A stretch of DNA of 64,000 bases from Tubulanus polymorphus (Eukaryota; Animalia; Nemertea). How positions within the stretch are numbered: the stretch's first letter is position 1; every line of letters starts with the position of its first letter. The DNA lies in assembly GCF_964204645.1 (NCBI RefSeq), contig NC_134028.1, forward strand, positions 19,537,653 through 19,601,652. The letters run 5' to 3'. This document shows, piece by piece, positions 4,801-61,130 of this stretch. The position numbers and the translations under genes were made by a program. The notes under the pieces were generated by a model. It made no database searches, was not told the origin of the DNA, and was given only the letters and a program-made list of their open reading frames with translations.

Positions 4801-5938
4801 TTATATATTTTTAATTTTACTTGATAATATCCATTCATTGAATTTATCTGGCCATCCAACCCATTTTACTAAAGAATATTTTTTTTCTTTTAACAGTTTT
4901 TGTTTTTAATACTCTTTCAATTTTATATTCTTGTCCTAGATTTTCAGTAGTTAAACTCAATTCTTCTTCATAAAAATACCCATCAACTTCTTCACCATTT
5001 AAATCTTCTAATTTATAGACATATGGTTTATTAACCATAAATGTTATAACCTTTTTTATTTTATATATTTCCCTAGTAAAATTTCGATCGTATCCCTTGT
5101 CAAATATCTTTTTATATTTAGAAATTCTAACATTTTGACCAACTTTAAATTTAGGTTCACCAAAATCATCTACAAGAAATGCTCCATATAAATTATTCCA
5201 AACAATTTCAGCATTTTCAGGTTTTCTAGCATCAATAGGTTTCATTCCAATAGAAGAATGATAAGAATTATTATATCCTTCTATCAATTTTGGTAAAACA
5301 TCAATCCATTTAAAAGTATTATTTGCTGTAAAATATTTCTACATTCTTGTTCTCAATGTTCTATTAAATCGTTCAACAACTGCTGCTTTTTTATCCGATT
5401 TTGTTGAAAAATATTTAATATTATGAAAACCTAAGAGTCCATGAACCAATGAATTATCAAATTCTTTTCCATCATCAAATTGTATTTTTTCTGGTTTTAG
5501 TTTATCATCTGAAAGAAATTTTCTTAAAACATTTGATGTTTGTACAGCATCTTTTCTATAAAGTGGGAAGCTCCATACATAACGACTAAAAATATCAATT
5601 ATATTCAATATCCACCAATAATCATCATTATCTTTCTTAACATTTTTCATTTCAATTAAATCTCCTTGCCACTGTTGATCTACATAACTTACCATAGTTT
5701 TACGAGTCTTATATTTTCTAACAATTTTTTTATGTGTTGTATATGTTGGTTCTTCTAACATAAATTCATTTATATCTTTATATTTAACTAAATTTTGTGG
5801 GATTATCTTATCTAATTTATCTTGTTTTACTTGACGCCATATTTTTTTGGTAGAAGAATAAGCAACCGAACTCTCAGGGTTGTAATATAAATTTCTTAAA
5901 TATTGTTCTTTAGTATTAGGAGTTTTTTTACCACCCAT
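4801..5938 (-). pseudogene. Polinton retroviral-like (rve) integrase with C-terminal chromodomain
   Basis: WQGDL, IDIFSRY, QFDDGKEF, VERFNRTL, YNNSYHSSIGMKP, FKVGQNVRI, then YKIERVL...KW.GW. Internal stop at ~5339 and frameshift near 4880. Confidence 0.93.
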
Positions 5939-5968
5939 TTATATATCGTTAATTTAAACTTTACATTT

Positions 5969-7219
5969 CTAATATTGAATACTATCTAATTTTGAATTTA
6001 CAATATTTAATTGTGCGTCAGATATAATATGAATATGCATTTTGAAATTTAAGCTTCCTTTTTTCTTTTTCATGAATAATTGTATTCCATCTTTAGTGTT
6101 CTGTAGTTTTTTCCCAGAACCATGTAGTGAATTATCCTCTGTTGTTCTAAAATCTAACCATAATGCATATTTATTGCCGGTATAATAATCAATTTGATTA
6201 ATATTACAATTTTCAAATGATTTTACTTTTTCATTCATAAAATGTTTTCTAATTTCTGGCCATTGATCTATCATTCTCATTCCTTGACAAAATATTTTAT
6301 TTGCTATTCCTTCGATAGTTATTTCTACTTTTGTTATTTCAGGATTATAATAATTATCTACCTTTATTGCGCCATTAGTATATGTTGCAATGGTAAAAAA
6401 TATTAATATACCTTTAATAGATCTTCGTGGGAAGTTAATATTCTCATTAATTATTTCATCATTTGCATTAATAGTTACAGTTTTAAATTTATCAATATAA
6501 TCATATAGTAATGAAAATCCATGATTGTATTGAGTTTGAATTGTATTAGCAACATTTTCATTAGTTACTGTATTATATTCTAAACATATATTCGATAATT
6601 TATAACCCATATCTTTAACAACGTTAGATAATACAATTTCATTTACAGGAGCAAGTGTTATCTCAAATATGATATCTTCTTGAATTGCATATTTATATAA
6701 AGGTGCATTATTATTTATCAATTCAAAGTCTAATGGAATTTTATATTTGCTTCCATAAATCTTTTTAATCAAATTATCTACCTCATCAGCTACTACTGCA
6801 TTATTGGCTTCAGATCTTAATTTATTTTGGTTTTCCGATTGAATGCCTTGAAATACCATATTATTTCTATTTTATTTAGTTAACCATAAATCTTTATAAT
6901 GCGTAAATAAATTATAATCATCTAATGAGAAAACTGTTTCTGGTCCAATCTTTATAGTTAATTTTTTAATCAAATATCACCCAACATTAACAACAACATA
7001 ATTATTATTATTATTGCCGGTTACTTTTATATCGGCTGATAAATAAATACTATTTGGAACATAAAAAGTATTTTGTGTTAATCGAGGAATTCTAACATAT
7101 AAAGTTTCATCAGGATTAATATTAGAAGGGTTATGAGTAATTATATGATGTGATCTTTCTGCTTTAATAGCATTAGATATTCTAGAATTCTTAGAAGGAT
7201 TTATATAACTCCCACTCAT
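5969..7219 (-). pseudogene. Polinton major capsid protein (double jelly-roll type), frameshift ~6977
   Basis: ORFs 6977..7219 and 5969..6859 join to ~415 aa (ITHNPS...YALWLDFRT...DAQLNI). Resembles Polinton MCPs from memory; near-identical paralog at 61131-62378. Confidence 0.75.
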
Positions 7220-7239
7220 TTATTTAACAAAAAAATTAA

Positions 7240-12315: not shown

Positions 12316-13487
12316 ATGGATGAGAAGATAGGATGTGAAATTTGTGGTGAACTTCTAAGAAAAAGTAATATGGCTCGACATATGAAAAAACATGATGAAA
12401 ATTATAAACCCCCTAAAATAAACTGCCCAAAATGTAATAAATTGTTCTCAAGAAATTATGTTAAAACGCATTCAGAGAAGTGTAAAATTAATGGCGCAAC
12501 GGCTAATGTTGATAGTAACGAAAGTAATAGTAGTTCTGTTGAAGTTGAACCTGAAATTATTTGGAAAAGACCTTTCTTATTCTATGATAAGGATAATATA
12601 AAAGATCATTTCTGTGAGCCTTGTCGAATGAAATTTAGTCCTGAAAATATAGAAGCTTGGGAGAATCATCAATTTCGAAAGCACATTTAAATTTCTAATA
12701 AATTTGAAACAGAATTCAATGAAAGAAAAAATAGTCTATTAGAAAAAATAAAATATGGGAAAACGTTACCAGATAATAAAGAAACAGTCGAAAAGTTAGA
12801 AAAACAATATAATGAATTAACAAGAAAAACATATTATTGTAAATATTGTAAATTGATTATTACAACAAGTAATTCAAATCTACATAATAGAACAATAAAA
12901 CATAAAGAAAACGTAAGAAAAAACTTAATGTAGATCTATTACTATTATTCAAAAATGTCCAAAATGTATTTATGAGTACTTCAGACAAGAAGGTTCTGTG
13001 ATATTATGTAATGTATGTGGATGGGAAAAAAATTTATGGGGTGATGAAAAAACTAGAGATTTTCTCATAGAACCAAAATTAAAATATCTAGATGAAATAT
13101 TTAATATATCATACACCAGAATATAAGCAATGGCTTGAAAAAATGGAAATAATAGAAAATAAAAATGGTGAAATAACTAAAAAAGATATAATAAAAACAA
13201 TTATTCCATCAACATTTAACACTCAAGAAAAGAAAATGTATTTATATTTATTATTTAAAGATTATTATAAAAAACCTAAATTAACAGAAGAAGATATGGA
13301 AAATATAAAAGAAACATTCAAACAAATATTAAGATATTATGTGGATAATAGAATAACAAATTCAATCAATTATGAATTCTTTTTAAATAAGATTGTAAAT
13401 TATTTAAACATCGATATTATAATTCCATTTGATGAATTAACAACAAAAAGAAACAAAGAGAGCGAGATGAAATGTGGAATAATATAG
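12316..13487 (+). CDS. Polinton C2H2 zinc-finger ORF(s) and a downstream hypothetical ORF
   Basis: CEICG...MARHMKKH, CPKC...THSEKC, CEPC...HQFRKH, and a further CKYC...H unit after the stop at 12690. Confidence 0.7.
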
Positions 13488-14033
13488 AACTTTATTTGAA
13501 TGAGAAAAATTAAATGGAAGAACCTAAACAAAAGAAGAAACCAATAGTGATTTCGAGTTTGATGATATTGATCCATTTTAATAACCATAAAGTAATGTTT
13601 TTATACCACCATCTGAAATATGTCTATTATCATCAAATGGATTTAAACTAGTTTTTTCAACTTCATTAATGTACATCTCGTGATCTTCTGATCTTAGACA
13701 ATTCATTTTATGTATCATTACAATTGGGTTATATAAACACTTTATATAATCTTGAAATTCTATGTGTTTATCAACTACATGTTCTGTTACTCCTTTTAAT
13801 TTTTTAGCTTCATGATCTTTTGTTCTGTAACTATACATTTTACTTCTTATCCCAACAAATTCAATCATTTCATCACCCCCTAATTCATCTCAAAATTTAC
13901 CAGGAATCTTTTTATTATCATTGCTAAATAGTTCATGATCTTTGTGATAATTGCTAAAATCAAAATGATGTTTTAATGTTTTTAAGTCTTTTGTTATGTC
14001 ATTTGTCTTGATTTTTAGTATGTACGCATCCGT

Positions 14034-15099
14034 ATTGACCGCTATTAATGGAAATCCACAGTTAAATGTACCATCTTCAATTGATAAATCATAAACATAA
14101 TCTGTTGGGTTATATATTTCAAATAAATCTTTAACTTCTTCTGTTAACTCATTTTCTACATGGCTTAAATTAAAGGAATTTGGTTTAGATTTAATCAATC
14201 CAATATTCATATTAAAACCTAAAGAATTGCATAATATATTCAATCCTGATATAAGCAACTTTTCCTTTTTGAGCTAAAGATATCGTTTTGCGGGTTTTGA
14301 AACTTTTTGAACCATCTGCAGCATAGAACCCAATGAAGAACCATTTTCTTAAATTATCTTTTGCATTTAATACATAATCTGGAAGTATCTTTTCTTTTGT
14401 TGAAGTATTACTTTTCACTATTGCATGAATATAGAATTCATCATTATATTTTATAGCAAAATCTTTAGGATTATTTACAAGTATTCTATAAACTGCTGAT
14501 GATTTCATAACATCCATGATTCTAAATGTTTTATGTGAATAAACTTCTTCACAGAATGTCTTAATTCTTTCTAATAATTTCAAGTCTTGATTGCATAAAT
14601 ACCAACAATATTTATTCCCCCAAACATAATTATACACACCTGCTGAACCATCACCCATAAAAAATCCTTTAATAAAATATTCTTTTTCTTCTAATGTTTC
14701 AGGTTCTATATTATAAATATTTTCAATTATTTCATCAAATGACATATGATTCATTCTTTGGAAAAATCTTTTATGTAATAATTCATCTCCAATTTTTATA
14801 TCAGTTGGTTTTATTTCATCGCCATTTCGTTTAATTAAACTATGATCTTCAGTAACATCTACAAACCCTAATTTAGTTCTAACTCTATAGATTTTCTTAT
14901 TTGTTTTATGCCTAATAATATTCTTTAATTTTTTCCATCCATTTCTTGTACAAACATCTATTAATTCATTTATTTGTATTAATTCTTTTTCACCATACGA
15001 AATATAACATTCATTTTGTTTTGGAATTATTTCTGAAATTCTTCTAATTAATATTTGGTTATTGAATTTTAATAATATTGGGGTGTCTGCTGTAACAGA
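14034..15099 (-). mobile_element. Intein with LAGLIDADG homing endonuclease in pPolB motif C (~355 aa, one +1 frameshift at ~14253)
   Basis: Block A SVTADTPILL, block B DVTEDHSL, LAGLIDADG blocks FIKGFFMGDGS and FFIGFYAADGS, block F YVYDLSIEDGTF, terminal N followed by T. Excision restores LYFD-TDAY. Confidence 0.93.
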
Positions 15100-15684
15100 A
15101 TCAAAATATAAGATTTCTATATGTTTTTCCCCAAAAAGTGGTTGTAAAACATTATAATAAAAGTCATACATTAATAATTTTGATACTTCTAAAACAGTTG
15201 AACCAATGAATATAGGTTTATTAAATTTCATTGACGTTCTTTTTAATTTAACTGCTGTTAAATAATCTTCAAATCTTTTATTTCCTAAATGTCTAGGACT
15301 TGATTGTTAATGTCTTAATCTTTCAGAATTATTTACTAATTCAATATCATTTCTATTTCTAATATTTTCACATGTTTTACCATAAAAACTATTATTCATT
15401 AATTTGAAGAAATCTTTTTCAAAATCTGTTTTTGATATGGTTCTCTGTTGAGTATTGAAATCTATATATTTTTCTAACCACTTCGATTGATTAAATTCAA
15501 TATATCTATGTACTTTCTTTAATTTCATTCCTTGTTTTAGATAAAATTTTAACATTCTATAATGAACGATATAATTGTATTTATTATTTTGAGTAAGTAT
15601 TAATTTTTCTGTAAAAACATGATCTTTCGGTTTTATTTTCTTCTGGTATTCACTTAAATAACTATCATCTACGGTTAAATGTTC

Positions 15685-18332
15685 CGGTTCCTGAACTTCG
15701 CTGAAAAAGCTGAAACACTGAATCGCTGAAATAAAAACGCTGAAATTTCAGGGAATTTCCGAAAAACGCCGAAATTTCAGGGAATTCCCGAAAAACGCTG
15801 AAATCGTGCTAGGTACCGACAATACACGTTTTGAAATAATATCCGGGCCGGTATCCGCTGCCGAGTCCTGAACCGTCTTTTAGTCTCCACCTTCGGTTAC
15901 AGAGACATGCATGGGCAGTATGTGTGGAGTATACTTCTAGAGGGCCACTTGTTGAACAAATTAATTCGCTTGAAATCCGGATTTTTAATGCATAAAGGCA
16001 GCATGATGAGGAAAACCCATTCACAAACCGTGCAAGCCAACTTAAACACTATGCTCAATATTCCAAGAATATGGTTTACTTCTATCGTTCATGTATAAAA
16101 CAGGATTATAAGCAACTTTTCTTTTGTCAACACGTTGATGGGCGACGGACTATGGTATTCTCTGAAGGAGGTAAATTAAATTTGACAGCTAGTTATATAA
16201 ATGATGCAGCTTTTGGACAAAAGGGATCTAACTAAATTTCTTTTTAATTCACCGTGGAATGGAATGGATTGACGCCAATGACATGCAGTAGGCCCCTACT
16301 TATAGGTCATACTAATTAGCGTCAACCAATTAATCTAAATCGGGCAAACCATTCAACAACTGTAATTTATTTGTTGTGTTGTGATAATAATAGGTTTTTT
16401 TTTTTTAAATGACATACCAACTGTTAGAAAAATGTACCGATTCTTATTTTTAGACTACTACGGTATCTATAAAAGGAGGAGTCATAGATAAAGTTGATTT
16501 GCTCAGCTGGACACACTTCTTGTCAAGTACATCATCTCAAGTATTGGGTGTTTTGTAAGTTTGATTTCAGTATTTATTTACTAAGTGCTGTTCCCTCGGA
16601 CCTCAGTGCTTTCAAACTAGGCCCACCCCATAGGCTATATCTCCAGAGTGTGTTAGCCACTATTCTTTTATTTCCTACTTTAAATGCACTTTTTTTCTAT
16701 TTTTAGACTCGGGCTAAGAATGTGCAAATTTGAGATACTGAGAAATCAGATGGCACTAGTTAACTTGAACTGCGAAATTTGCAGCAGGATAGCTGAACGA
16801 CACAATTTTTAAAAACAAAATGGCTATTCGAATGCTATTTCAGTAATAACTTGATTCAACCAGAGAGAAATAAGTCAATTGGGGATGTACAGTACACCCA
16901 CTTTACTTCCCCGTTTTCCTGGTACCAAATTTTTTATCTTAAGCTAAGCAATATTCTAAGGTATGCTAGTGAATTTCATTAGAATATAAAGCAATGGAAC
17001 CAGAATTTTAAGCCCGAGTTAAGCGAACTATTGATTCTGATATAATGTAAGAACTGATTTCTTTTGTGTATTCTTATAATGTGTTAAGTATTATTTTAAG
17101 CTGTTAAATAATATAATTAGACAAACGTCAAATTATTGGATCTTTCTTGTTGACTCATTTAATTTTGTGAGTTTAGAGTTCCAGTCAATCCACAATGTGC
17201 AGTGCCTAGCCTTCATCTAGTACTAAAGCCAAGCCTGTGTATGGGAAAACGTTGTTCGACTCTCATAAGCCAGACAAATAAAAACTTGCAATACATTGCA
17301 GATAGTAGTCTCCAGCAAGTAGACAGAGAAAGTAAACCAGGTTTTACCCCGTACCCTACCCGGCATCTTCACCTGTCAAGGGATTCGAACCCACTACACT
17401 AAAGCTGTTCTCCGAACCGCTTGACCTCGAGTCGTTACTAGCCGACCAGAATCAGGTCGGGCCAATCACAGCGCTTGTTACAAACGACATTTGGCATCTA
17501 TGGAATTTCCCGGTAAATGGACCAATCAGCGAACACGTAGCGAAAACGGAAGTATTGTCGCGTGTTGATATATGACGTCATTCGCAAAAACGCCGGTAAT
17601 GAAATCGCGCGTCGTGAGGCCAGGTGGAAGCGAGTTTGGGAGCGATACTGGTCTCCTGGCAAGCGAGGATGCCTACCCGGGAACGAAAGACACTCCAAGA
17701 CTCCTTCCTTGAAGAGATTGTAGAAATATGGCACCCAATCGTAGTAATGCTAAGTACAGTATACTATGACGGTTGAACCTTTATTCACACCAAAATAGAA
17801 TCAAAGTAGTCATAAGTTCCATGATAGCACTTAATTTGGGTTATCAGGTTCAGCCTTACTAGCTGTACTTTCATTCAGCTACTACTTTTGTATGAGACTT
17901 GGCAATGATAAGTTGGAAGAAATCACCAAATATAAGAAAAAATATTGAGAATAAATATTACTGTAATTAAGAATTTATTCAAATGAAGTGATAATTTCAT
18001 TGTTAGATCGTACCGGTATATGCGCATAAAACAAAAAACACATCTAACAATCCACGCAATCCGCAATCGATCAAGTCGAACATGACGACGACCTCAAGGC
18101 ATGTCTCTGTAACCGAAGGTAGAGTCTAAAAGACGGTTCAGGACTCGGCAGCGGACACCGGCCCGGAAATAATTTCAAAACGTGTATTGTCGGTACCTAG
18201 CACGATTTCAGCGTTTTTCGGGAATTCCCTGAAATTTCGGCGTTTTTCGGAAATTCCCTGAAATTTCAGCGTTTTTATTTCAGCGTTTCAGCTTTTCAGT
18301 GTTTCAGCTTTTTCAGCGAAGTTCAGGAACCG
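15685..18332. mobile_element. Non-autonomous DNA transposon (Mutator-like) with ~225-bp TIRs and 9-bp TSD, inside pPolB
   Basis: Termini CGGTTCCTGAACTTCGCTG...CAGCGAAGTTCAGGAACCG. TSD TAAATGTTC at 15676-15684 and 18333-18341. No transposase ORF. Confidence 0.9.
17340..17443 (-). mobile_element. tRNA-derived SINE head
   Basis: B-box GGTTCGAATCCC on the minus strand, no complete cloverleaf. Loosely similar sequence at ~37975-38107. Confidence 0.45.
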
Positions 18333-20255
18333 TAAATGTTCTGGGTAACAATAAGGTAAGTTTCTTGTTTTAAACTTTATATTTTCAGGATATTCTAAAT
18401 CAACTACAAAGAAATAACCAATTGGTGCTTCATCTTTTAAACTCGCAATTGCGCTTTCCCAGTCAGTTTTATCATCATTTGTTAACTTCTGTTAATTTAA
18501 AATTTTTGTATGGTTGAGGTTGCATCATTGCCCAACCATATACATTATTAGCGTCAGTATATAATAACTTATATTCATCATTTGCTTTAAAATACCTATC
18601 TCCCATAACACCACTAATTCCACCTCTAATTGATTTTTCAAATAATAAAACCATGTCTGGTTCTTTTAATAAATCTAATTCTACATTTGTGTATTTTAAA
18701 CCACATTGCCAAGTTAAAACAGGACTAGAGTAGCAATAACAAGGATCAACATTAAAATGATTCAAATTAACTTCTCTAAATTTTTCAAATATGTCAGCCA
18801 ATATCATAACATCTGATTTTAAATATAAATCAACTAATTCACCATGATTTTTCATCTTAAAATGGTTCCAAATATTTAATGTTCTATTAAACACTTCATC
18901 TTTCACATACTCCTCTTTTAATTGATCATAAAATTGATCTTTTAATAATTTTGTTACATTAAAATCATCATGTGTTTTATAAAATGAATAAGGAATTGCG
19001 CCTTTATATCTCAATAATTTAAAATCTTGTTCATTTGGATAATAATATCGAGTTATAACAAAATCATTATCAACTAAACTTTTTGATAAATTATCTAATG
19101 AACTTGCTAGAAATCTATAAGAATCTAAAAATCTAATGCAACCAAATTGAAATGAAATATAATTTTCAGATGTCTTAGCTAATAGTTTAAAATCATATTT
19201 TCTTACATTTGTACCATTCATAACATTATATTCTTCTATTTCTTGATTAATTGCCCCTAATTTTCCCGATAATTGTTTTATAAATAGATGGGTATCATAG
19301 CCTGATAAATTATGAAATAATATTGGTACGAAATTAACTTTCTTAGCTTGTAAATTACAATCTTCATGAGCAGCTCCACGATATTTTGAATTTAAATGAT
19401 TATGATCTCTAACTTTTTTATCAAATGAATAAAAACGTTTTTCACAATAACAACAATGAGTTGCATAATTAAAATCAATTTCATCTTCTTTTGTCATAAC
19501 TATTCTTTTATTTTTGTTTAATAATTGCACAAAATCACTTTCTAATTCAATTATCTTGTTACAAAAATTATTAACTACATCTTCACCTCTAAAAGAAATA
19601 TATTGACTTTCATATAATTCAGGATAATTTTATTTTATGTAAATTCCATAAGCAGCAGCTCTTTGATGAACTTTTTTAATTGTATTTATAATTGGTGGGT
19701 CTTGTATTGTGTCTTAATTTAGTTCATTTCCTTTATCCATTGATTTTTGTTATATATTTCTTTTCTATCTTGATCAGTTAATTCTTTATTCAACGATTCA
19801 AAATCCCCATAAATTACAAATGGAACAATATTCTTAAATTCATGATTAGTAAATTCCAATTTATAATCTTTTTCTGTTGGCATTATTAATTTACAAAAAT
19901 CTTTATTATCACATAATTCTTTATGTTTTAGTAACGCATTCTCAGTTCTAAATTTAGATAAACATTTTCTACATAGATAAATTTTATGACTGTTAAAATC
20001 ACTTTCTGTTCTAAAGAATAAATCAATTTGTTTTAACCACATATATTGTTCATTTTCATCTTTTTTGTGATATAACAAATCTATAGCATTTTCATCATCA
20101 TAATATTCTGTTAAATATATAGCTTCCAATGTATAATCTTAAATATTTTCGCCTTTTGTCTTTGGTAATTGCATTAATTCGAATACATTAATTTTTAAAT
20201 CATTAATTTTTTCTATTTTGGGTATCATTTTTATAGTTACTGGATATTGATCGAT

Positions 20256-22277
20256 TGTAGCGGAAATTCGTTTCAATTCGTTCTGTTCTTTTTATTTTCC
20301 AGCTGCAGAGTCCTCCCCAGCTCAGTCTAAAATTCATATTAAATTCCTATTAAAACTTTGTATGATGTAAGATAAAACCTTATAATGTATTTGTAACTCT
20401 GAGACAAGAATGTTTAATGCTTTGGACTTCGGTCTGGTGGATTAGAAACTATTTTTATTTCTATCTTAATGAAATATTGTATGATTTAATCTGAATTCAA
20501 AAACTGTACCTAAAGACCTTTTCTATGTGTTCGGGTCACTCCCGGTTTGTATTTTTCGAGTTAATGTGCCTTAATCGATGTTCCCGTGCTTAAATCGATA
20601 TTTTTATGCTGTGCTCTGTGCCCGAGATGGCGCCACTATACGGTTCTTAATTATATTGTGTGCTCGGGGTGCTTTGTTTTAACCAATTAGATGGGGTTAC
20701 GTCATAATCTGGGCTCTATAAAAGGCAAAAATGTGCCCTATTAATTAGTCTCGGTGCACATTCTTAGGTGTGTATTACTAAGATTTTGAACTATGGGGGG
20801 GAGGGATTAATCTAATTTTCTTAGTAAGTCATACTTAGCACTGATTCTCTTTAAGTATTTCTTGGTCCTTATTCTCAAAGTTGTTTTTCTTCCAAGATGT
20901 TTTCGGAAAACCATCTTTCAGGGTTCAAGGAGGTTTTCTCCTTCGAATTATTCCCCGAAAGTATTCTTCTTTCCGATTTCCTCTCTTGGTTTTTCCCTCA
21001 ACTTTTGAGTTTTCGGAGTAGTGACCATCTCTTACATAAACATAATAGGAAGAATGATTAAATAAATACTTAACTGGAACTATGATTAAATATAGCGAAA
21101 ATTCTTATCTTTATTAAGAGCACTTAGAGTTACATCTTCTTTAGCGTAAAACGAGCGCAGGGTTTAAGTAACTATTGTTGAGTCGTAATGTTAGAATATC
21201 TGAAATCTTTATTCCTAATACTATTGAATTCTGGTGCGAGTCGTGCACTTGTATTAAGGGCAATATGCCCTTGTTAATCTCCTCCTTTGGTGGCCGGTTG
21301 GCCATCTTATCTACCTTAAATGTTGTAAATAAGAGATAACCTCGAGGTTGTGTATATATTGTTCATTGTTCGAATATTTCCAAGAAATAATAAATAGTAT
21401 TCAAGAGAATATTATCATATACATAAAATTCTAAATCTTTGCCTTTTTCCCTAAACTATTTTTGTGGTGTCGGATTTACTATCAATTGAGGAAAGGATTT
21501 TCTTGTGCATTTTTGGGATTCTGTGACACCATAAAATATTCTTGAAGAATCTTGTGGGTTGGAGAGTTTAGGGCATCATGTAAGTCTTCAAAAAGGGGAA
21601 GCATTGAGGGCACCCTCTAGTGGGAGAGGCCAAATATTGGTGAATGCTCCTCGTTTTATTTAGTTGGTATCTATTATTCTTTTTGAAGCTAAACGCCTGA
21701 TCAGGTCGGCTGTGGAGGCCGGAAATACTTGTAGCGCTGGACGCAGTCCTGTATTTCCTCCTCAGTCGGAGAGAAAGCTAGGGGATTTTTATTTTATTTG
21801 ACTCATTCATGATTCTTCTATTAATTCTTTTGGTCACAGTTTTTCATACATGCACACGCCTTTTTCATGGGTGATTTGTGAGGACATTCAGTCACCCGTG
21901 TTACCATTATGACTTATCACTGAGAATTAGGACTCCTTTAAGTATTCTCACTCACCAGAGGAAGACTTGACCTTATTTTTGCGCGTTAAATCTCATGGAG
22001 GAAAACAAGAGAATTTTCCCCTTCTAGCTTCTCTACCTCCCAGATGCTAGTGACGTGAGCGAACCCTAGAAGCGACGCCTATATGCAACTTTTTTCTTAA
22101 ATGTATAGGGTTATAGAAAGAGAGAGAGAGAGAGTTACCTGTATTCCCTCTTGGTCGAGGAAATTCCGAGAGTCGAGACCTTAGACTTGACATTATGAAT
22201 TTTAACGGAAACGGAAGTAGATTTTTGTAGTCACTTGCCAGAGCACGCTACCCCGAATCCCGGTATTCCGCTTCACA
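20256..22277. mobile_element. 2.0-kb non-coding insertion with TG...CA termini (solo-LTR-like) inside pPolB
   Basis: Termini TGTAGCGGAA...TTCCGCTTCACA, TATA-like CTATAAAAG at ~20716. Removal with one AT restores in-frame TLFKI-DQYPV. Confidence 0.75.
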
Positions 22278-25034
22278 ATTTTAAATAATGTTTCATATTT
22301 CCGGTAATTTGTTATTCTAAATCTATGCTTAATATCTTCTGTTGGATGTAAGCAACTAATAATTGACCATAGAAAACATTTATTATCTTCATTTTGAACA
22401 TTTATTACTGCTTTTGTTGAAAATTGTAATTTAATATAAGATGATGCTTTAATATCCTTTTCTGTTATAAAGTTTGTATCATTTTTAAACATTTTATTAC
22501 TTTTTGATGTTTTATTTCTTTTTGTATTATAAACATTTAAATCTAAATATATAATTTCATTTAATGATAAACCAGAACCCTCAAAATATCTTTCTTCAAT
22601 ATGACGTTTAAATTCATTAAATATTTTTTCTAACTTCTCTTTTATTTGTGTTTTTGAAATTATTTCTTCAGAGAGTGTTTGAATATTATAATCCATTTTT
22701 TCTTCTGACTTAATAAAACTTACTTTCCCAGAGATATTAATTTTTGGATATTCAACATCTGTTATCAAATCTAGTATATTTCTATTATTTCATTAAATTT
22801 ACTATAATCTTCTATTGTTGTACCTTTAAAAAATCTAAATGTAATAGCTACAGGACCAATTTTACTATGTAATGTTTCTAAAATTTCAATTGTATCTTTT
22901 ATTTCAAGAGTATCGATATAATTTCTAACATTTTCCATGTAGGGTTTATTTGAAATGGATTTAGTTTTTGAAGTTGGTTTTTTTACTTGTTGAGGTTTAT
23001 CATCGAAATAATCTTTTCCTAAAACATTATTACTCAAATTTTGATGGTGTTTTTGTGATTCGAGATGTGTATTATAATTCCTTTTTACTATAAATTCATT
23101 ACAAACTTCACATTTTATTTCATCCACATTCATATTTTCTAATCGTTCTTTTCTTTCATTGGAATTTTCTGAAGTTTCAAAATCTATAACCTTTTTTATA
23201 TGATTTGAAGATTTTTCATGTTCAGATTTATTAGATTTATCGATGTATTTTTTTACAATATGGACAATAATATTGATTTTTATTAACATTATTGTTTTCT
23301 GTCTGGTGTTCATTCTCCCCCATTTATAAGGAAAAAAATTACTTGTGGTGATGAGTGGGGATTACTTCCCCTTGTATACAACAAACACGCTATTAACCGT
23401 TCTCACCCAAGCCTCACAGCATCTATTTATCCGAGCACAGTTGACACGCAATCACTGTACTACAGTAATAGCACACGCGTTAATAACCGTTCTCAGTAGC
23501 GACTCACTGTATTGATCTATCCACGCGCAACTGTTGTTACGCGCACTCACTGTATATGCGTATCACAGAGCAATCGTCCGTTCTCACTAGCGCCTAGCTG
23601 TGATGACGAGTGTCTCGTCTGGTATGAAATGAGTTATTTCACTCACACTTTACTCACACTTTTATGTTTAAAAATCTAATTTTTATCAACTCGTTAATTA
23701 CTCGTTACTTTTATAATTAACATATAAATGATTTTAAAATATATGAAATTCATGTAAATAATGTTCATTTTTATGAGTTTCGCTACTAATTCAAGTAGAA
23801 ATTGCTATTATTTTCATGTTTTTCATTTTTACGAGCTCGTACCCTCGTACTCTGGGTTGAAAACGCCATCTTCTAATTACTATCAATGATAGGTCGCTCA
23901 AATTGCTCAGCAGTTATATCCGAACGAAAACAGGTGGCCGAAATCAACGGAACGACTCATCTTGGAATAAGTCGCTCTAGCTAAGGGAGTTACGCAAGGT
24001 GGTATCCTAAGTCCTCTTCTCTTCACTGTCGTTATTAATGATATACACAGTAATCCAAAATGTACCAGACCGAGTAAATTTCCAAAACGACCTAAACAAG
24101 CTGTGTTCCGTACATGGTCAGAAACATGGAAGATGGGCTTCAACCTAAAAGGCATGATACGGATATTGGATACAAAGAAAACCCAGATTCAGATTATACC
24201 CTTGTGTTCGAGAGAGAAGATTATTTTGTGCGAATTAAGATTACTCATTATAACAAAAGACCATTTAGTTCCATCAGAATTTTGTTGTTTGGAACGAAAA
24301 CGCTTCGATCGAACAATGTACTTGTTCGAACCAGGGAAGTGTGATGAGATGGAATACGGACGCTTTTAATTGCCGGATATAGGCTATTCAATTCAGCCCG
24401 TACATCAAAGGTTACCGCAACAGCAGTAAGGTACGCTTATCGAGTGTGTGTTACCAGCTGAACGCCAGTCAACATCAACTTTGATTCGGTCGCAGAACAA
24501 CCCGCAATAGTTTTAGCCCGATAAATGTTCTGCGATCGATACTACGCATGCGCACTGCAGTTCATTGAACAACGTGGAAGTGGCTGTGTATACACATATT
24601 TTTCTTTAGAAAATCGGTTGAAATTCAACAATTTCTCGTAAAATTTGTCCAAAAAGGTATGTATTTTTATTCTTCTATATCTCCGAAACCCGGTATCGGA
24701 ACATTAAGTATTTATATTGTGATTAAAGTCTGTTTTTATGTGTTAAACATATGTTTTTGCCAGTTCGTTCCGATTCCGGGTTTTAGCGTTATTTGGGCCT
24801 TGAAGATGTCAAATATTTCGGCCCAGACTCGCGCAGCTTTCGTTTCTGACTTCATGTTGCTATGTTACGACACAAACATATACACGAAGTATGATCTTTA
24901 AAATGTGTATTTACTACATAATAATGTTACTTAATAACGCTTACATTAGGCCTACAAATTATTGTCTCCCATATAAACCAAGTTGCCTAAATAGCATCAG
25001 CAATCTCATTTAATTAACCTTTTCTTGTTTTTAG

Positions 25035-30002: not shown

Positions 30003-33000
30003 CTAGACATCAACTAATGCTCGCATCAAGGGTTTCCGGCTGTCAGACGGGGAAGGTCTTGGATCGAATCCCATTTCCGAGAGAATGTACGAATCCTTCT
30101 CCGCACGATCTTGTTGCACATCCCTCGTCTCCAGTTCGAATTTACGACCTAATTGCTGAATAATGAGACCTTGTTTCTCTAGTAACCGTTGTAAACCTCG
30201 TAATCTATAAAAAGATTTATAATCCATATCATTGATTGATCATCAGTTTTCGAGCGGGGTTCGTATGTTATATTTGTACCTGTTTTTCTGTGACGCCATT
30301 TCTTGAACAATTGATTTTAATCTATCACTATCAACCTCGTCGTCTTCCTGTATGAATCGGGTGGATTTAGTTGTCCCAAAAAATTGAGCTCGAAACTAAA
30401 TGGAAGAACACAGAGGAAAAATATGTTCAAGATCCGGACCGAGTTTTATATTGACCCAGTTCCATCGCAGCCCAGTTTCATCGGGACCCACTTCCATCGC
30501 AGCCGACATCCACGGTTCACGAGGCCCAGTTCTAAGTCCAGCACTGGTTCTCGTTGGGTTTGAATTTTCAGTTAGTGAGCAAGTTCTAACCAGTTGTCAG
30601 AATTAATTCATCTTCAATGTCCAAATATTGACCGAAAAATCGTGTATCTACGTCCAGGACCCGTATTAGCTAAAATGCAAAATCTTAATGCGGTATTCCA
30701 TTCTAGTGAGAGATTTATAGTTACCCTCGAGAAACAAGACATGTCAGAGTTAGGTCTGATTGTGTGAGTTTTGAAATGTACTTTTCTCTGAAGTGAACGA
30801 GGAAATGTGGTTTCAATATCACTGATCATCTGGAACTAAAAATGGAACAAACATCTTATCCTAATCTCTATCCACTTGATTATGATCGAGGGAGGGCGGT
30901 GCTGTCGGGGATTTACCTGCATGGCTAGACGTTTAAAATATGCACTCTTCTGAATTTTATCAATGTCACCCACAGCGATACCGACCTACAAACAAAATAT
31001 ACAAAATTATTTAAAACAAAATTCTTCATCATTTAGATCATTTCATTTCTAATTAAGACGATCTTTAGGTTCGTTTATAGAGTGAATTTTTCTAATCACC
31101 ATTCAAATAATATGAGAAATTTTGGATAGGCAGTAGATAGACTATAATATTCGGGTAATGTTATCCCAAAACGACCTCCAAAATAGGGCAAGCTTTATTT
31201 TTTTTCAAACCCCGCAACGTGATCACTGAATTAGTATTGAAATCAATGTTTTGAGTTTTAAGAGAAAAAAATATTACAAAAGGAAATAAGCATTTCAGCA
31301 TATGTTCGATGATGAGTTTACGGCGGGGTACGGAGTGGCCGGGTAGTTCAGGTTATAAAGGTGTTCACGGTTTCGTAGTGTAGAGATAGTTCAGATGGTC
31401 TTGGCAAAGTGGTCCAGGTGGTTTTGGGTGTAAAGTGGTTCCTGGTCCTAGGTGTATATATGGTTCAGGGTTTCGTGGTGTTAAGTACAGGTTCAGATGG
31501 TTTCGAGGTGTAAAGTGGTTCAGATGGTTTCGTGGTGTAAAGGGGTTCAGATAGTTTTAGGTGTAATGGTTCTGATGGTTCTGGCGGATGAAATTATGAA
31601 CATACCAATAGATTCATGATCATGATGGGCATCACAATAACGAATACAACCAATAGAATGAAACAATCGTGTTTGAACGGACTCAATTCTGATCCTACAA
31701 AACTATCTTTATAGTTGATTTCGCCTACAGTCATAATCATAACAGTCACTGCATTTGCTTCAAATGTCTCAAATACCGGCTGAAAATACACATCATTATT
31801 CATACACATACGTTATCACATCCCGGTCTATCGAATCCCCGCGGGTACAATTATCTATCCACTACTCCTCAACTCAGGCGTGTCTACCTATGCATGATAA
31901 TTTAGTGCATTGGGTTTCCAATTGAAAGCAAATCAAGAACACCAATATGAAACACTAGGAATCAATCGATTGGTTTGATCATGGACGTATCTAGTTTAAA
32001 CGTCCATGGTTTGATTTAATTTGTGTTTTCCTGCTTTACAGGGGTCAGCACCTCTAGCAGGCTGTTAATAATGCAATTACTATCAAACCCATGATAATTG
32101 TAGGCATCAATATGATAAAAATTAATAATAAAATGTTTGCCTCATGTACAAAATGGCCCCAAATCACCATCGACGATATTATCGATGTAATTGATTTCAC
32201 CGATTGTATTCACAGCGATACACACAACATTACTGATATAATCAGAGAATATAGCCTGAAAATATAGAATATATCAATCAGAGCGAGGGGCGGTAGAGGA
32301 GGCAACACAACCCAGACACAGAGCTCCCAAGTGTGGAGGAGGGATGGTTCGGATTGAGATACATACCGGTATGTAAAACTTACCAATTTTCCCATAACGA
32401 TGTAAAATGCACTTCCAAATGCACAAATAAAAAAAAACACAATAACCAACATCTGGAATTCACAGAGATGCAGATATTGATGTTCAGTTTATGACAATAT
32501 ATACCCCACACTGTGGGTTGGGATGTCAACCCAGTCACAATTACCTTTATCGCTGATTTAAAAACTGCTGTGAACATTATCAGATAAATTCCCAACCAAT
32601 CAACCCTGCGAATAGAAAATTCAAACAATCATTCAAATACGTATAACAGACTGTTCTATTTGGACGATAGGGAGGAAGCGGGGGAGGAGGGGTGGTTGTT
32701 TTACCTGCGCATGTACATGATGAAATTAAACCAACTGAGGAACATAGCGATCCATCCACATCTCCACTGCATCAAACACGGTTTAGTCATTGGTGGATAT
32801 ATATATCCACAAGTGCTGATTAATAGTGCTAGCACCAGGTAGTTATAAACATCGAAGAAATACGACATTTTCTGCAAATAGAGAATGTAAATGAATATTG
32901 AAACATTCTCTACCCGGTAAATATGCATTATTTGGAGTCAGTGGTCACCCGTTCGATTTTTATGAAAGTAGATCTTTTCTAGCTTATTTGGGTTGAGAAT

Positions 33001-36000
33001 CTTACTATACTTGTTCCTACAATCTGTCCCCAAATCGAGAAAGTTTGAAAGCACGGGCATATTTCAAACGAATACGAATGAAAAAGTGTTACCAATGAGT
33101 GAATCTTTTGAAATCGATGCTCAAATTTTCTAAGGGGCGGCATCTGCGCTGAACTTCGTCCAATGAGCGGGGAGGTTGGTTCGAACCCCCTTAATACGGG
33201 CGCGTTATTTTACCTGTCGAATTAGTGAGACAATCTCGCGTACAAAGAATGTGACGACCATCACCAGTAACAGAACATCGACAACAGCGAAAAAACTATA
33301 ATCCTGATCCTGACGCATTTCCCTCGTCATCTGACCATGCTGTCAAAAATCACAGATCAATTCATTAAACAGTGAAATGTCAAATTATTTACTACGCAAC
33401 ACTTTATATAGATTCTACGTAGTTTCTACTATGTATGATTCTTAAATATTGAAATCATCATTAGGGATTAATAGATTAATAGATATACCTTACCTTCATG
33501 TAATAATCAACTAATGTGGAGTTTAACTTTTCACTTTCATTGAGGTAAATTGGACAATGATGGAATTCGTCGAATAAAGTGGCGTTTATAGGAAAATCAA
33601 CGACATGAGCCGTGTAGATATTCAATAACAATACAAACATCACATAGAATAACAGATTACTGTAGAAGAGATACCGAACACATTTCACCCTGAAATTTCA
33701 GCAGAATATGGAAGTTTAATGTACATACAATACCGAACACAATATAAATATGGCGGTTACGTAATATGATAGACTTTCTTACCATTTAACTGAGAGTAGA
33801 TTCTGGGAGAGAGGATGAGATAATAGATCCGTGGATTTAGCCTTTACCATTGTCTGTAAACAATCAATAAACAACAGGGATGAGAACGCCGACCTGTAAA
33901 ATCCGCGGGTTATTTTTCTTGAGTGACATACGCGAACCAGCTGACGGCGTAGCCGTCAGCACTAGCAAGCGCCGAAGACGCGAAGCTATTTCGGGGGTGT
34001 TTGGGGGTCCTCCCCCAAGAAAATTTTAGAAATTAAATACGTTTTCCGAGCACTTAGAGCGATCTCGAACCCATGAACGACTATTATATTTTGGAAGGTA
34101 ATGGCTAGTTCCAATGTGGTACATCCTCATTTGATGACATTCAGCATCTCATGCATTACGGGTCGAGCCCTGAATTATTGCAGTAAAAATGCGCCGATGA
34201 ATGCTCACTAAAAATCATCACCAAGTAGTGTATAATATCCGAAAGCGTTCGCCACACACACGCAGCAACAGTAAGTAGACCTATATACGTTACTACTGTT
34301 GCTGTGCGTGCGTGTCTGCAACCGATCGATAAAATACATACAAACTCAGCGTAGTACAAATCACATACAAAATCACTGTGTTGCAATGAATATGCATTGA
34401 AATGCGATACTTTTACGTGACGATAAGTAAAACAGGCACTGAACGCTTTTACGGTTCACCTGATTACCGATCGCGCCGGACCAATTGAGTGAGATCATCA
34501 CCCCCCCCCATACTTTTACATCATTTTTGGACTATTTGGAAAATTGATATTTTTCAATACTGAAATCCGCGGGAAACCGCGGATCCGCGGGGAATTCTCA
34601 TCTCTGAAACAATCAGTAGACAATAGGCAAATAATTAGTAAATGATAGGACTGTACATACATCCATAGCGAACCATCTTTGTTTTTTACACATCGGATCA
34701 TCAGGTCCCGGATCTAAAAACGTGTAATCAAATGTCACCTGAAAAATTGAAATCTTTATAGCATTAATTTGGCGGGAGGTGGGGAGCAGGGAGGGGAGAG
34801 GAGGGGATACGGAAGGGGAGGTAGGTTATGTAGACTATCCTATAAATCTTAACTTAACTAGTCAGCAGGGGAGGAGGAGGGTGGTGAGGTGGATAATGAG
34901 AAACCTCTAGATTTTTATCCTCATGATCATCAGTTGATGCTCGGACGCAGTGGTCCATTACTACTTTAGCTGCTTCCGGTAAACGTTCAATCAGTCTCTG
35001 CATCGGTGTATATTCATTCTTATCCCTGATACACATTGATTGTCTCCAACTACAATATATAAACAATCACATCATCAGGGGCACCAGTTAGGGGTGCAGG
35101 GCCTATCCTTGATTCGCTAGAGCATTTTGAATAGACTCCGTGACCAGTGCAAGATAACAGGTTTCAAAATCAATAAAAATTCGCTCTCAACTTATTAATT
35201 TCAGACAATTACTAATCAGCATGAAGATTTTGTGATTTTTTGACGCGATTAGAACCGTTACAATAATGTTTTTATACATTGATAACTAGTGTGCCTTATT
35301 TAAGTCTGGTATATGGTGATGATAACACATAAGATAACAATTAGCATTGTGAATTTTGTGATTAAATATATTTCATGACTTGTTTCGATAATTTACAATA
35401 ATCATTTTTGAGAGGATGTGCACCACAAGATTCCGATCGGGCTGTAGATAACGACTAAAAGATAGATGCATACATAAACCAAATCTAGACTATGCATCAA
35501 CGCGTAATGAAAACTAGATTCTCTTACTGACGGGTTGACGACGCTCCAAGTGACTAGACGGCTTAGGAAAGTGTGTAAATATACTTCATGTGCGGTATCA
35601 ATAGTCACAGTAACAGGGAGCACCGACAGGGGGCGTCTCAAATACGCCTTCACAGAATTCTACTTATGAAAACTTTCAGTCATAAAATATTCTGATATAG
35701 CAAACTACATTCAAAACGACTGAAACCTTTTATGTTTAAGTAGCGCTATTGCAGCCTCATTGGCTAAACTGTTAATTGCAACGTCTAATGGCGAATGACC
35801 GTGCGAATTCTTCAATGTGACGTCAGCATGGCGTTCTAATAGTAACCGGACTGCATCAGCGTGATTACTCGAGCAGGCGTGATGTAATGAGGTGTTCTAC
35901 AAAATAAAAACATGTACAACATTTACTTGAACTACTGTTATGATTTCGGTTATTTTCAAGGGCGGTGATATGATTGGGGTTATTTTCGTTTTAACCCAGA

Positions 36001-39000
36001 AGATGTGTGTGCGTGTTGTAAATGACGTTTGTTATGTTTTAAGATGTTCTTATTTCTATTTTTGTAATTAGTTCTAAACACTGTTTTTCCTCCCTATACC
36101 ATGGAAATGGTTGGAGTGTAATGGATACCCGTATTCGTCGAAATTTGTCTTGCAACAGCTTTGCAAACAAGGAACACATATTGAAAAGACACTTATCCGT
36201 GTTTTGACGATAATACTACGAAAATCCCACATTAAAGACGAAAAAAATAGAGTCCGAAACTTTATTCAGTATTCCTGAAAATGACTATTAGTTTATAGTC
36301 GAAACGTTTAATAAACTACACGAGCTCAAGGAAAAAATTTCGGACTTTATTTTTTCGTCTTTATAGTGGGATTTTCGCAATATGAAGGAAAACATATGTT
36401 TCACTCCAGGGGCGGTCTGCCCACGTGACGTACAATTAACATACCTTTAATTTATCGCCGTCGTTAACATTAGCATGATGATCTAACAATATGATCATAG
36501 TCGGGGTGTTGCCATAGTGAGCAGCTAGTATCAGTGCAGTACAGCGGCTATCATCTCTATACGATGATGGTTTTCATTAATTATAGAACATTTTGATTAA
36601 TTTAACACCACATTCATCTTAGAACATTTATTGATACTTACTTTGATGTTGTATCTGCCCCGAAAGACAACAATACTTTAACCACGTGACGATGCCCGTT
36701 AATACTAGCCAATAAGAGCGGAGTTCGGCCATCGATGTCATCATCGTTTAATTCCGATTTGCTAGCTTCTATTAAACTTTCAGCGCAAGCTAAATTATTC
36801 GATTCAGCCGCGATGTGCAACGGGGTTTTCTCATCAGTATCTTTAACACTAGCGTCAGCACCAGCTTCCAGTAGAATCCGTACCAACTGAAAATTCAATA
36901 GATAACATATTTTGAGCCAGTGGCCCCAGGATTCGATCACTAAAACCCCTTGGGTTCAGTTGGCCAAAATGTGGCATAAAAGTTTATCATCGGGATCCAG
37001 CTCCACAATTTGACTCTCGAGTTAAAATGTCTACTCATTTCAACCGTTTTAAAAGATGAAATTTTCCGGTAGGTTTTTAGTGCCCTGTTTCAACGGGTCG
37101 AAGCGGTATAGCGGTGAACATTTGACCTAACTTGACTGTACATTGTGACATTCACTGTCAACGATGTATAGGATGAGCACTCGATGGTTATGAACTCTCA
37201 CAGTTCGATATTTGTTTGTTTTTGTTCGTGTTGCCTTTGGACCTTGGTTTCCCAAGACTAACCCTATTATATTGGTTTATTCAACCTCACGACGGGACGG
37301 CCTTTGAGGTGTTGCCCGCACACCGTAAGCAGCCAACAGGACTCAAAACCACTTGTCATCAGCACTGATAGTAGTTACAACAGCATCGCGCCTTATCTCA
37401 CTGAGCTACTGAGCTACCGAGGCCGCTTAGATCCGTTAACTCTACTGTTACATGCGATTTTTTCCCAGAGCGGACAGTGGGATACTTATAAAACACGTAC
37501 CGAATTATTGCCCACATACGCGGCGTAGTGTAAAACATTTTGATCGTTCCTATCTTTTCTGTCTAAAATCGATTTACCATTCTTCTGCAAAATACATACG
37601 TAAAAACACCACATCGGTTTAGAGACACATCCCCGGCCGTCCGACCCCCTCATATATCCTCAGGCTCCATAAACTTACAACTAACATAGACATGACAGTC
37701 ATACTATGTTCACCCTCTACAGCCCAGTGAAGACATGTCTTTAAAGATGTATCTAATGAATTGATTTGCGCTCCGTTATCCAATAGAAACTCAACAGCTT
37801 CCGTCTGACCTTTCCAACATGCCACGTGCAACGGACCTAGACTATTGATGTCTTTAGCATTGATATCTGCTCCCTACAACAAACAATAAATGATTATTAT
37901 CCCAATCCCTACAAAACTAAAATAACAACAAATCATTGATGAGTCTGTACCGAAAATTCCTTCGAGGTTTATAAGTACCCCACCTGTCTCAGACTAGAGT
38001 TAACGTGGGCACATCACAGAGGACGGGTTAAACCTGCAGGTTCAACCAGGAAAATGAAAGCAACCTAACTGATGAAGAAAACGTTGCGTCTCCACAGTAC
38101 TAGCCGGTGATCAGTAAATTGTTCAGCTGAGCTTTTGAAATAAGAGGTACTTATTAAGGGAACTCTCGACTGAATGATCCTTAGAGATCTTTTTACTTTA
38201 TAGCGGCAGACGGTAGAGGCGTAACTCTTTAGGACGGTCCGGTGTTACAGAAATAATCTTGTATTACGGTACTGGTTTGTGTTTAAAAAACGACTGACAA
38301 GACGCGGGATATGTTTAGTGAATTACCTGATCGATCAGTATTTTAATGATAACCACACGATCATACATAGCCGCTTTATGAAGAGGAGTCATTTTTTCGC
38401 AATCACGAGGGTCGATTTCCGCTTTCCAATCGAGTAGCAACTGGACTAACTCGGAGAATCCGTTCACAGCTGCGATATGTAACGGCCTCATTAGATTCGC
38501 CTGTGAATAATGAATACAGAAATATGAACACAGAAATAATGGTGATTTATCTTAGCTGGGTTGGAATTCCTTTTATATTTGTTGTCTTTTTCTCATAGCA
38601 TTTCAAACAAATGGTAGATGTGGGGGGGGGGGGGGTAATGATTTAAGTAAAGTGTTTCCTGTCGCTATCTCACGCTAGGGGGTAGGGGGGGGGGTTGTTG
38701 ACCTTGTAATTTGGAAAGTAATAGAAAGAAATGTAAAAACAATCTTGTCTTGTTAAGAATAAGTTATTGCCTTCTCTTTCAAGGTGAATTCTGTAAAAGT
38801 TGTAAGATCTGCATTGAGCCGTGGTGCGCAAGACTAGCTCTGTTAAGGGACTGAGAGGCTTGGTCTATTGGTGAGTCGAGTTGAGTGAGTTTAACATCAA
38901 AGAATGATGATTAAGCAAAATCAATCAAAAGCAACACCACCCGTTTCAGATGATATCGAGGATGTCGAAGAAACCATTGCATACCGTTACCGTGTATGTT

Positions 39001-42000: not shown

Positions 42001-42778
42001 TGGAACGGCACCGATCCCGTACAAACAAAATTTTGTTTCAAAGCACTTGGACTTCAAATATATATTGTTGGCATCAAATGGTAAGATGAAGATTAAGTCT
42101 GAAGATAGTAAGAAATAGTTTATTTAAGTTGTATAGTATTCATTGGTTTGATAATTTTATTATTTGGGCCAGGAGTTTGTACCTGCATCAATCAATAATC
42201 TCATGACCTCTGGATGACCTTCAGCTGATGCTAACATCAATGGTGTCACATCATTGATATCTGTAGCCAAAGGATTAGCGCCTTTATCCAACTATAAATG
42301 AAGTGTGAATAAATGAACTCAAAAACTAATTTCGATTTTGAGTCCATGAGTGAATCAAATAGCAGTATGCTTCTCGAGCTTATCAATGATTGACCTACCA
42401 GGATCTTACAGGTCTCCGGACTACCATGCAATGCCACCTCGTGGAGAGGTGTGCTGCCATCGTCGTCGGTAACATTAGCGTTTGTTATACCCTGACCACC
42501 GCCTTTAGATTCTAATAAAATCTAAACAGAAAATCAAAATATCCAATATTTACAAACTACATCAAATGACGGAGTTACTGACTGAGACAATTTATATGAT
42601 ACCTGAACCATCCACTGAAAACCTCTCCTCGCTGCCACGTGAAAAGCCGTTTTACCTTTAGCATCAACTGCCTTCACATTAGCCTGGTGTTTTAATAAAA
42701 TTAGCGCCACCTCACGGCAATCGTATTTACTAGCTAACATCAATGGGGTCGAATTCTCATTACCACGTACATCCGGGT
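30003..42778 (-). CDS. TRPA1: TRPA1-like ankyrin-repeat TRP cation channel (5' exons not found in window)
   Basis: GT-AG exons read in frame: 42603-42778, 42399-42521, 42183-42291, 41609-41718, 41399-41446, 38327-38500, 37679-37873, 37501-37584, 36642-36886, 36445-36556, 35727-35896, 34905-35049, 34661-34738, 33783-33853, 33494-33689, 33214-33339, 32705-32871, 32545-32605, 32384-32452, 31606-31779, 30917-30985, 30725-30835, 30280-30395, 30003-30204. Many ankyrin TPLH repeats, LLSHPL...KW, six TM segments, pore GEINY, MNLLVGIAVGDI...KRLAMQ. Subfamily call only; orthology not tested. Confidence 0.9.
31345..31585. repeat. Degenerate ~30-bp minisatellite (GGTGTAAAGTGGTTCAGATGGTTTCGT)
   Basis: About 8 diverged tandem units in a TRPA intron. 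Confidence 0.7.
32081..32255 (-). other. Duplicate TRPA pore/S6 exon (candidate mutually exclusive exon, +1 nt as assembled)
   Basis: TTTTCAG acceptor and GTAATT donor, 175 nt versus 174 nt for exon 31606-31779. Encodes ...NTIGEINYIDNI...LMPTIIMGLI. Confidence 0.85.
33875..34606. mobile_element. hAT-like MITE in a TRPA intron
   Basis: Termini CAGGGATGAGAA...TTCTCATCTCTG, partial flanking duplication AAACAA, subterminal ATCCGCGGG repeats. Confidence 0.6.
36218..36380 (+). mobile_element. Penelope pLTR remnant in inverted arrangement with a degenerate hammerhead
   Basis: ~36219-36261 is inverted relative to ~36338-36378. The centre CCTGAAAATGACTAT...ATAGTCGAAACGTT resembles 59375-59410. Confidence 0.65.
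38750..40600 (+). mobile_element. Decayed BEL/Pao LTR retrotransposon (gag and protease remnants), antisense in a TRPA intron
   Basis: LNLQKLNLLKLNRGMLQWRSC*DSFCSAID resembles BEL gag; LRGLYDEIENCLRGLE; protease-like ILFDGASHRSY at ~40315. Boundaries approximate. Confidence 0.7.
40690..41510 (-). repeat. ~440-460-bp tandem duplication containing TRPA exons
   Basis: ~40693-41080 is similar to ~41149-41520. 48-nt exons at 41399-41446 and 40962-41009; microexon candidates at 41218-41253 and 40767-40805. Confidence 0.85.
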
Positions 42779-42904
42779 CTTCGTGTAAAATCACAGAGAG
42801 AAAATAATTTACGTATTACAAGCAAATCACTAAAATCACTAAATGGAAACCATGAGTAATATTTTAAAATGACGTTTTCAGATCAGAGGTCGAGAGGTCG
42901 GCAC

Positions 42905-61110: not shown

Positions 61111-61130
61111 TTAATTTTTTTGTTAAATAA

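Follow-up and report, generated by a model that had tools for sequence, protein, structure and literature searches.

Introduction

Can an animal chromosome carry a complete homing-endonuclease intein and, if so, where did it come from and does its family still move? Metazoan genomes are said to be without inteins, according to the accessible text of two reviews (PMC5784728, PMC8529194). The question is raised by a 64,000-nucleotide stretch of DNA assigned to the nemertean Tubulanus polymorphus (hereafter the window), in which a first-pass annotation, made from the letters alone, had reported that catalytic motif C of a Polinton's pPolB (a family B DNA polymerase primed by a protein) is split by a 1066-nt insert. 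That annotation also took the split site, of the form YxD/TD (a slash marks the junction), for a known PolB intein site, and indeed the pol-c site is known in family B polymerases from the Mimivirus PolB intein and from archaeal PolI position III, as set out in the part of PMC549080 available to us.

Results

A pol-c intein splits motif C

A six-frame reading of the window, reads that skip the insert and an empty (intein-free) relative all concur on the split. On the minus strand, the N junction at 15099 reads HIEILYFD/SVTADTP and the C junction at 14034 reads FNCGFPLIAVN/TDAY. Two independent sources fix these borders: 41 reads from which precisely 14034-15099 is missing, and the empty relative P0334 (L001). 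The parts of the intein are as follows.

14034..15099, minus strand: full-length intein (Hint domain plus LAGLIDADG endonuclease), pol-c allele, with a frame break near 14250
14842..15099, minus strand: N-terminal splicing region, from Ser1 (15097-15099) to block B TEDH (14842-14853); TIGR01445 match above cut-off
14647..14676, minus strand: first LAGLIDADG motif, FIKGFFMGDG, acidic residue retained (six-frame reading, alignment)
14311..14340, minus strand: second LAGLIDADG motif, FFIGFYAADG, acidic residue retained (six-frame reading, alignment)
14034..14099, minus strand: C-terminal splicing region, with block F YVYDLS (14082-14099) and block G ending Val-Asn

All of the splicing blocks named at first pass, together with both LAGLIDADG motifs, are present on six-frame reading, and the class 1 residues are Ser1, a terminal Asn and Thr+1. 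The span of 1066 nt equals 355 codons plus one nucleotide, and tblastn places a frame shift at ~14253. A profile search for Hint and LAGLIDADG domains had been proposed as a check; in it, the 295-residue N-terminal piece passes the cut-offs of TIGR01445 intein_Nterm (31.8 bits, cut-off 24.5) and PF14528 LAGLIDADG_3 (23.6 bits, cut-off 22.5), and its match to PF14890 Intein_splicing (E 3e-6) falls below cut-off at 27.5 against 35.8. The 80-residue C-terminal piece, searched alone against profiles, gave no match.

Relative to most PolB inteins the C-terminal splicing region lacks one residue, and its penultimate residue is Val, where His is usual though not obligatory in class 1 inteins. The Val was rightly called atypical at first pass: it occurs in none of 58 pattern-matched Polinton-type rows (His in 49, Lys in 8, Gln in 1) and in one of 129 complete inteins, and P0344 has Ser at this position. 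Since His, Lys, Ser and Gln are all found among relatives, the Val may be tolerated, or it may reflect decay.

The carrier is a decayed Polinton polymerase

The intein lies in a pPolB gene that is itself in pieces, accompanied by further Polinton genes and candidates.

22277..23289, minus strand: pPolB N-terminal piece (alignment to the empty relative P0334, L001)
20259..22276: second insertion in pPolB (alignment to P0334)
18333..20258, minus strand: pPolB middle piece, PF03175 DNA_pol_B_2 with a weak Endonuclease_7-like insert (profile search)
15688..18332: first insertion in pPolB, with inverted repeats of ~230 nt at its bounds; very high copy
15100..15687, minus strand: pPolB N-extein piece, running from motif B to motif C's first Asp; contains a stop (15307-15309)
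13584..14033, minus strand: pPolB C-extein, from Thr+1 on; stop at 13890-13892
13092..13487, plus strand: weakly VLTF3-like gene, tail-to-tail with pPolB (E 0.01, below cut-off)
5972..6871, minus strand: candidate capsid gene, common to a second Polinton copy
4847..5938, minus strand: RVE integrase of the Polinton, one internal stop (PF00665, 39 bits)

The element is assigned to the Polintons because it combines a protein-primed pPolB (PF03175 match, 44 bits) with an RVE integrase. Its N-extein piece is 90-93% identical to that of the empty relative P0334, and L001 likewise contains the VLTF3-like gene. The candidate capsid protein has no PDB or PHROG match, and its model, built from two sequences only, reaches a pLDDT of 32. 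No Polinton protease was recognised in the window, and neither terminal inverted repeats nor a 6-bp target duplication with matching termini were found for this truncated copy. The insertion at 15688-18332 (2.6 kb, no long frame), which has a depth of ~3,000 at its end in run X6, is probably a non-autonomous DNA transposon.

The window copy is a decayed intein pseudogene, as its frame break, two stops and two pPolB insertions make plain; the stops and insertions in pPolB identify it as such, and it yields neither polymerase nor whole intein. At first pass one extra base had been reported to break an otherwise 355-codon frame; the frame does change at ~14253, but the broken state of pPolB itself had been overlooked. 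Reads at 14253, which had been suggested as a further check, lack the break in 72 of 91 cases, so that it is not common to most reads of the family, and 254 of 260 reads differ from the window within the stop at 15307-15309. Decay is a simpler reading of the frame break than assembly error: 19 of the 91 reads are without the majority difference, and further lesions mark the gene.

Two more Polinton sequences lie in the window. The second copy (59200-64000, plus strand) is inverted relative to the first and 87% identical over 2 kb to 5956-7991; within it are a 24-nt tandem repeat and, where the window ends, a frame resembling an ATPase, and a weak terminase-like match (E 5e-4, 63664-63999) adjoins it. 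A third, rearranged pPolB remnant (43100-44500, minus strand), 88% identical to 18736-19200, adjoins a TRPA1-like gene and ends short of motif C.

The same intein occupies the same site in many other pPolBs

Profile searches prompted by a few fragments turned up numerous pPolBs interrupted at this site by this intein: P0344, P0343 (a cluster of 136), P0346, P0349 (a cluster of 121), P0350, P0352-54 and P0281, besides the close intein-bearing fragments P0063 and P0275. By Pfam, P0344, P0343 and P0350 contain PF03175 plus intein or LAGLIDADG domains. Leaving aside the close fragments, the exteins are mostly 36-60% identical to that of the window. Both acidic residues of the endonuclease are retained in 29 of 30 complete, in-frame Polinton-type inteins, a set that includes near-copies from a few families. 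Outside the Polintons, the nearest relatives lie in RNA-primed PolBs at YGD/TDS: most of the best 150 among 1925 representatives are long PolBs interrupted there, and among 129 complete inteins extracted from the matches gathered by then, 100 follow YGD and 8 follow YMD in a pPolB.

Many of the intein-bearing pPolBs lie on contigs of 0.1-1.0 Mb and are often fragmentary, a pattern suggestive of copies that decay in the chromosomes of eukaryotes; P0352 bears the label of a clam-symbiont MAG, which is probably host carry-over. The distribution is patchy, since a metagenome scan gave 40 pPolB loci, all matched through the extein, and none of the 40 has the intein. Neither the intein frame nor the candidate capsid had a match in scans of viral contigs.

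Some related inteins were found in other contexts. P0165, P0294, P0295 and P0297 (a cluster of 55) are near free-standing intein frames on many long contigs, with ~11 residues before the intein and a few after it, possibly a duplicated solo intein or an effect of gene calling. Others interrupt a PF03747 (ADP-ribosylglycohydrolase) protein and topoisomerase II-like proteins, with D ahead of the intein and TD behind it (P0384, P0348, P0431, P0438, P0441 and P0443), suggesting non-allelic spread.

Filled and empty copies coexist in one species

Both intein-plus and intein-minus pPolB copies, which the first-pass annotation had proposed to seek in reads, were found. About 40% of the sampled words occur in four runs of one study; X6, of which 12% was used for depths, comprises raw DNA reads from another study with the same species label, and X5, a marine metagenome with a small share, gave 11 short pieces only and was left out. 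In X6 the median depth is 219 over the intein and 328 over the flanking extein, set beside a single-copy reference of 8.5 (from the ten bins of lowest depth among 30 across the TRPA1 region). Intein against single-copy depth gives ~26 filled copies (range 16-50), and depth likewise puts about two thirds of pPolB sites as filled; these figures are rough, because the likeness cut-offs differed (85 and 90), and they come from short reads. At least 95 reads come from empty sites, in three junction classes: 41 exact, and 41 and 13 with other letters beside the site. The intein reported at first pass is thus real, but it is not the single case it had been taken for: it belongs to an old, widespread clade with filled and empty alleles.

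Proposed homing, loss and escape at the insertion site

We consider it probable that the window intein is a decayed copy from a family founded by one ancient capture from an RNA-primed giant-virus PolB, whose uninterrupted members persist by homing. The main competitor likewise starts from one ancient capture, after which the intein would have passed only vertically down the Polinton lineage and been lost precisely, more than once; it would still splice but would home no more. In its favour, a 25-row tree of the exteins, built without the intein, agrees for the most part with the intein tree, although it needs 4-5 changes of intein state; the filled and empty pair P0464/P0467 is near-identical up to the site (299/300 and 169/169 identical), with no divergence around it; and 41 reads skip the intein exactly. 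Vertical descent alone sits poorly, however, with the retention of both acidic residues in 29 of the 30 complete copies despite exteins that are only 36-60% identical. It also has to accommodate P0350, a distant pPolB without a BLAST match to the window extein that carries the same intein; this intein falls inside the clade, where its place next to the window's group is weak (95/78; 97/84 one node deeper).

In the P0343 family, where filled alleles coexist with empty ones (P0455-P0460), the sequence is locally mosaic at the site, and this too speaks against vertical descent. Compared across 7 filled and 5 empty proteins among 15 listed from the 136-member cluster, the two states differ by 2.8% overall and by 50% in the 12 residues around the site, a divergence that ranks 2nd of 1180 windows of comparison. 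The filled flanks are similar to the P0281 lineage, matching the prediction of co-conversion. Among the empties themselves the divergence there is 23% (8th of 1180 windows), and the site takes the forms YFD-TDA, YTD-CDS or YGD-TDA, variation that is consistent with escape, albeit in small numbers. On these grounds we judge descent with loss unlikely.

Apart from a motif C that is non-canonical (DTDA, DCDS), P0455-P0460 are near-identical open frames. A reading of the P0343-cluster members of 1191 residues as canonical empty sites was rejected, as their site residues differ.

The intein lies in a chromosome that is very likely animal

The reading of a captured, homing intein family places the window copy in a host chromosome, next to the following gene.

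31597..42815, minus strand: host TRPA1-like gene, many exons (intron-split ankyrin-repeat gene)

One exon of this ankyrin-repeat gene matches TRPA1 (E 1e-6). TRPA is not proof of an animal, as choanoflagellates also have it. The contig is nonetheless very likely animal, because of its repeat load and a read depth that implies a genome of a few hundred Mb. Contigs of run X1 match the TRPA1 introns with no differences over 657 and 555 nt; X1 is not independent, since it may be the source sample.

The intein sequence could instead derive from outside the animal chromosome, through a chimeric assembly, a free virus or the DNA of an associated protist, and it fits such an origin that no single read or contig in the runs searched joins the intein to TRPA1 exons. 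We regard this as very improbable: runs of two studies with one species label contain both the TRPA1 region and the intein at high depth, read identities spread widely, as in an old repeat family, and the pPolB has stops and a very high-copy repeat inside it.

The surroundings contain other repeats. A reverse transcriptase with RNase H (1039-2901, plus strand) lies in GC-rich sequence left of the Polinton, a zf-AD domain frame (25018-25368, plus strand) lies within a multicopy repeat, 44400-56500 holds 31-nt and 51-54-nt repeat arrays with 4-5-kb segmental repeats, and a Penelope-like retroelement (RT and GIY-YIG) occupies two overlapping frames at 56552-59057 (plus strand).

Trees point to giant-virus polymerases as the source

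Phylogeny against PolB inteins, another check proposed at first pass, gave a single Polinton clade nested among motif-C PolB inteins. This clade is recovered by FastTree at 100 (20 of 138 rows), by IQ-TREE at 100/100 (16 of 67 rows) and at 100/99 in a hand-thinned set with the last 10 residues removed (9 of 53 rows). The trees are rooted on motif-B inteins, and their non-Polinton rows were picked by similarity to the window intein. In them the clade lies within starred groups of motif-C inteins from RNA-primed PolBs, of giant-virus type where named. Together with the pol-c allele, this bears out the claim, made at first pass, that the pPolB intein came from an RNA-primed PolB.

The C-end that is one residue shorter is common to the Polinton clade and a subset of motif-C PolB inteins. 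A pattern for it matches 21 viral contigs, 19 of which hold motif-C inteins in long PolB-type frames and 17 of which are labelled as giant-virus MAGs; prokaryote genomes gave no matches. As sister of the Polinton clade, the short-C-end group is recovered by FastTree (93) and not by the careful trees, one of them run without the C-end signature; the AU test neither rejects nor establishes this placement (p 0.258). L042, L046, L052 and L057 are giant-virus PolB inteins of ~220-230 residues with the same short C-end, and are probable mini-inteins that lost part of the endonuclease.

The comparisons of sequence make a giant-virus origin of the Polinton intein well supported. The reverse course or another source, with giant viruses receiving the intein from Polintons (or from archaea or phages), could draw on trees that disagree over the sister group and include no archaeal pol-c inteins, but is the least probable reading of all, given that the Polinton rows make up a single derived clade within a far wider diversity of motif-C PolB inteins, that 50,697 phage records gave one weak match and the prokaryote C-end search none, and that the nearest Atlas cluster is viral (phylum known for one member only).

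A predicted splicing and homing cycle

An AlphaFold model of the natural relative P0164 (48% identical; 61-row alignment) has a pLDDT of 89. Its top PDB matches are TliVMA, PI-PkoII, PI-PfuI, PI-SceI and I-DmoI, and among named BFVD entries the best matches come from phycodnavirus, pandoravirus, megavirus and marseillevirus polymerases; P0164 is thus predicted to fold like PI-type inteins.

Class 1 splicing proceeds by an acyl shift at Ser1, transfer to the +1 residue, Asn cyclisation and ligation. By analogy with this mechanism, uninterrupted members of the clade are predicted to splice out of pPolB: the acyl shift at Ser1 would be helped by the Thr and His of block B, transfer to Thr+1 and then Asn cyclisation would follow, and ligation of the exteins would restore the Asp-Thr-Asp motif of motif C. 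Since motif C would be restored only on ligation, the polymerase would presumably be inactive before splicing. The predicted endonuclease would cut intein-free pPolB alleles, and repair off a filled copy would convert the empty allele along with some flanking codons. Such conversion may take place among co-replicating genomes, or among integrated copies themselves.

Discussion

The window intein resembles known pol-c inteins, as far as the accessible text of PMC549080 describes them, in its motif C site (YGD/TDS there, YFD/TDA here) and in its Ser1, Asn end and Thr+1. Unlike them, it resides in a protein-primed PolB (PF03175) of an integrating Polinton, where theirs is an RNA-primed PolB (PF00136), and it occurs in many copies, in a nuclear genome very likely to be an animal's. 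Its identity to the nearest giant-virus-type inteins is ~40-45%.

HNH and VSR insertions have been reported in Polinton pPolBs (Jeong et al., PMC10748475), and Krupovic et al. (PMC11071308) suggested that pPolB endonuclease insertions stem from intein invasions, both from the portions of these papers available. Such insertions share with the window pPolB an endonuclease domain inside the polymerase; here, in contrast, a complete Hint and LAGLIDADG intein sits inside the catalytic motif. The words intein, Hint and LAGLIDADG do not occur in the obtainable main text of Jeong et al. (PMC10748475), nor intein in that of PMC8502044, and an intein of this kind in a Polinton pPolB is not described in the accessible text of PMC12220804, PMC3671162, PMC5718144 or bioRxiv 10.64898/2026.10.13.758929. 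The first-pass annotation knew of no prior account in animal Polintons, and full-text literature searching found none; a Hint/LAGLIDADG intein in a Polinton pPolB is undescribed in the literature searched, though Repbase, InBase, subscription journals and supplements could contain an older report. The pol-c intein clade in Polinton polymerases is apparently old, widespread and undescribed.

Other virus-derived or related elements offer partial parallels. Intein-bearing viral PolB genes lie on nuclear scaffolds of algae and a labyrinthulid, according to the text available of PMC10710043; there too a virus-derived intein was brought into a eukaryotic nuclear genome, but the carriers are giant-virus-like polymerases in non-animal hosts, whereas the carrier here is an amplifying virus-like element. 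Inteins of invertebrate iridoviruses (Bigot et al. 2013, as cited in the accessible part of PMC5784728) are likewise in animal DNA viruses, though not in pPolB. Metazoan Hedgehog/Hint domains also bring the Hint fold into animal genomes; in the passages at hand (PMC5784728, PMC8529194) these are cellular genes without an endonuclease that cleave and do not splice, whereas the window element has splice junctions and empty alleles. As for the iridovirus inteins, we know of no description of them as integrated multicopy elements.

It is conceivable, if somewhat doubtful, that animal Polintons host living homing inteins from giant viruses, with germ-line conversion, escape at motif C, and past replication of these Polintons in one cell with a giant virus, in the manner of virophages. 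With the finding, the pol-c allele reaches protein-primed polymerases, a step over a wide evolutionary distance; a jump of this kind by direct homing was judged implausible even for mimivirus and archaeal PolBs (PMC549080, in the part available). It would mark gene flow from giant viruses to Polintons, and bears on whether Polintons are virophage-like. Where one genome contains both states of the site, sequence can serve to measure homing, co-conversion and target escape, and splicing would gate Polinton replication. For metazoan genomes, the Polinton offers inteins an entry route, as a virus-like transposon that amplifies there.
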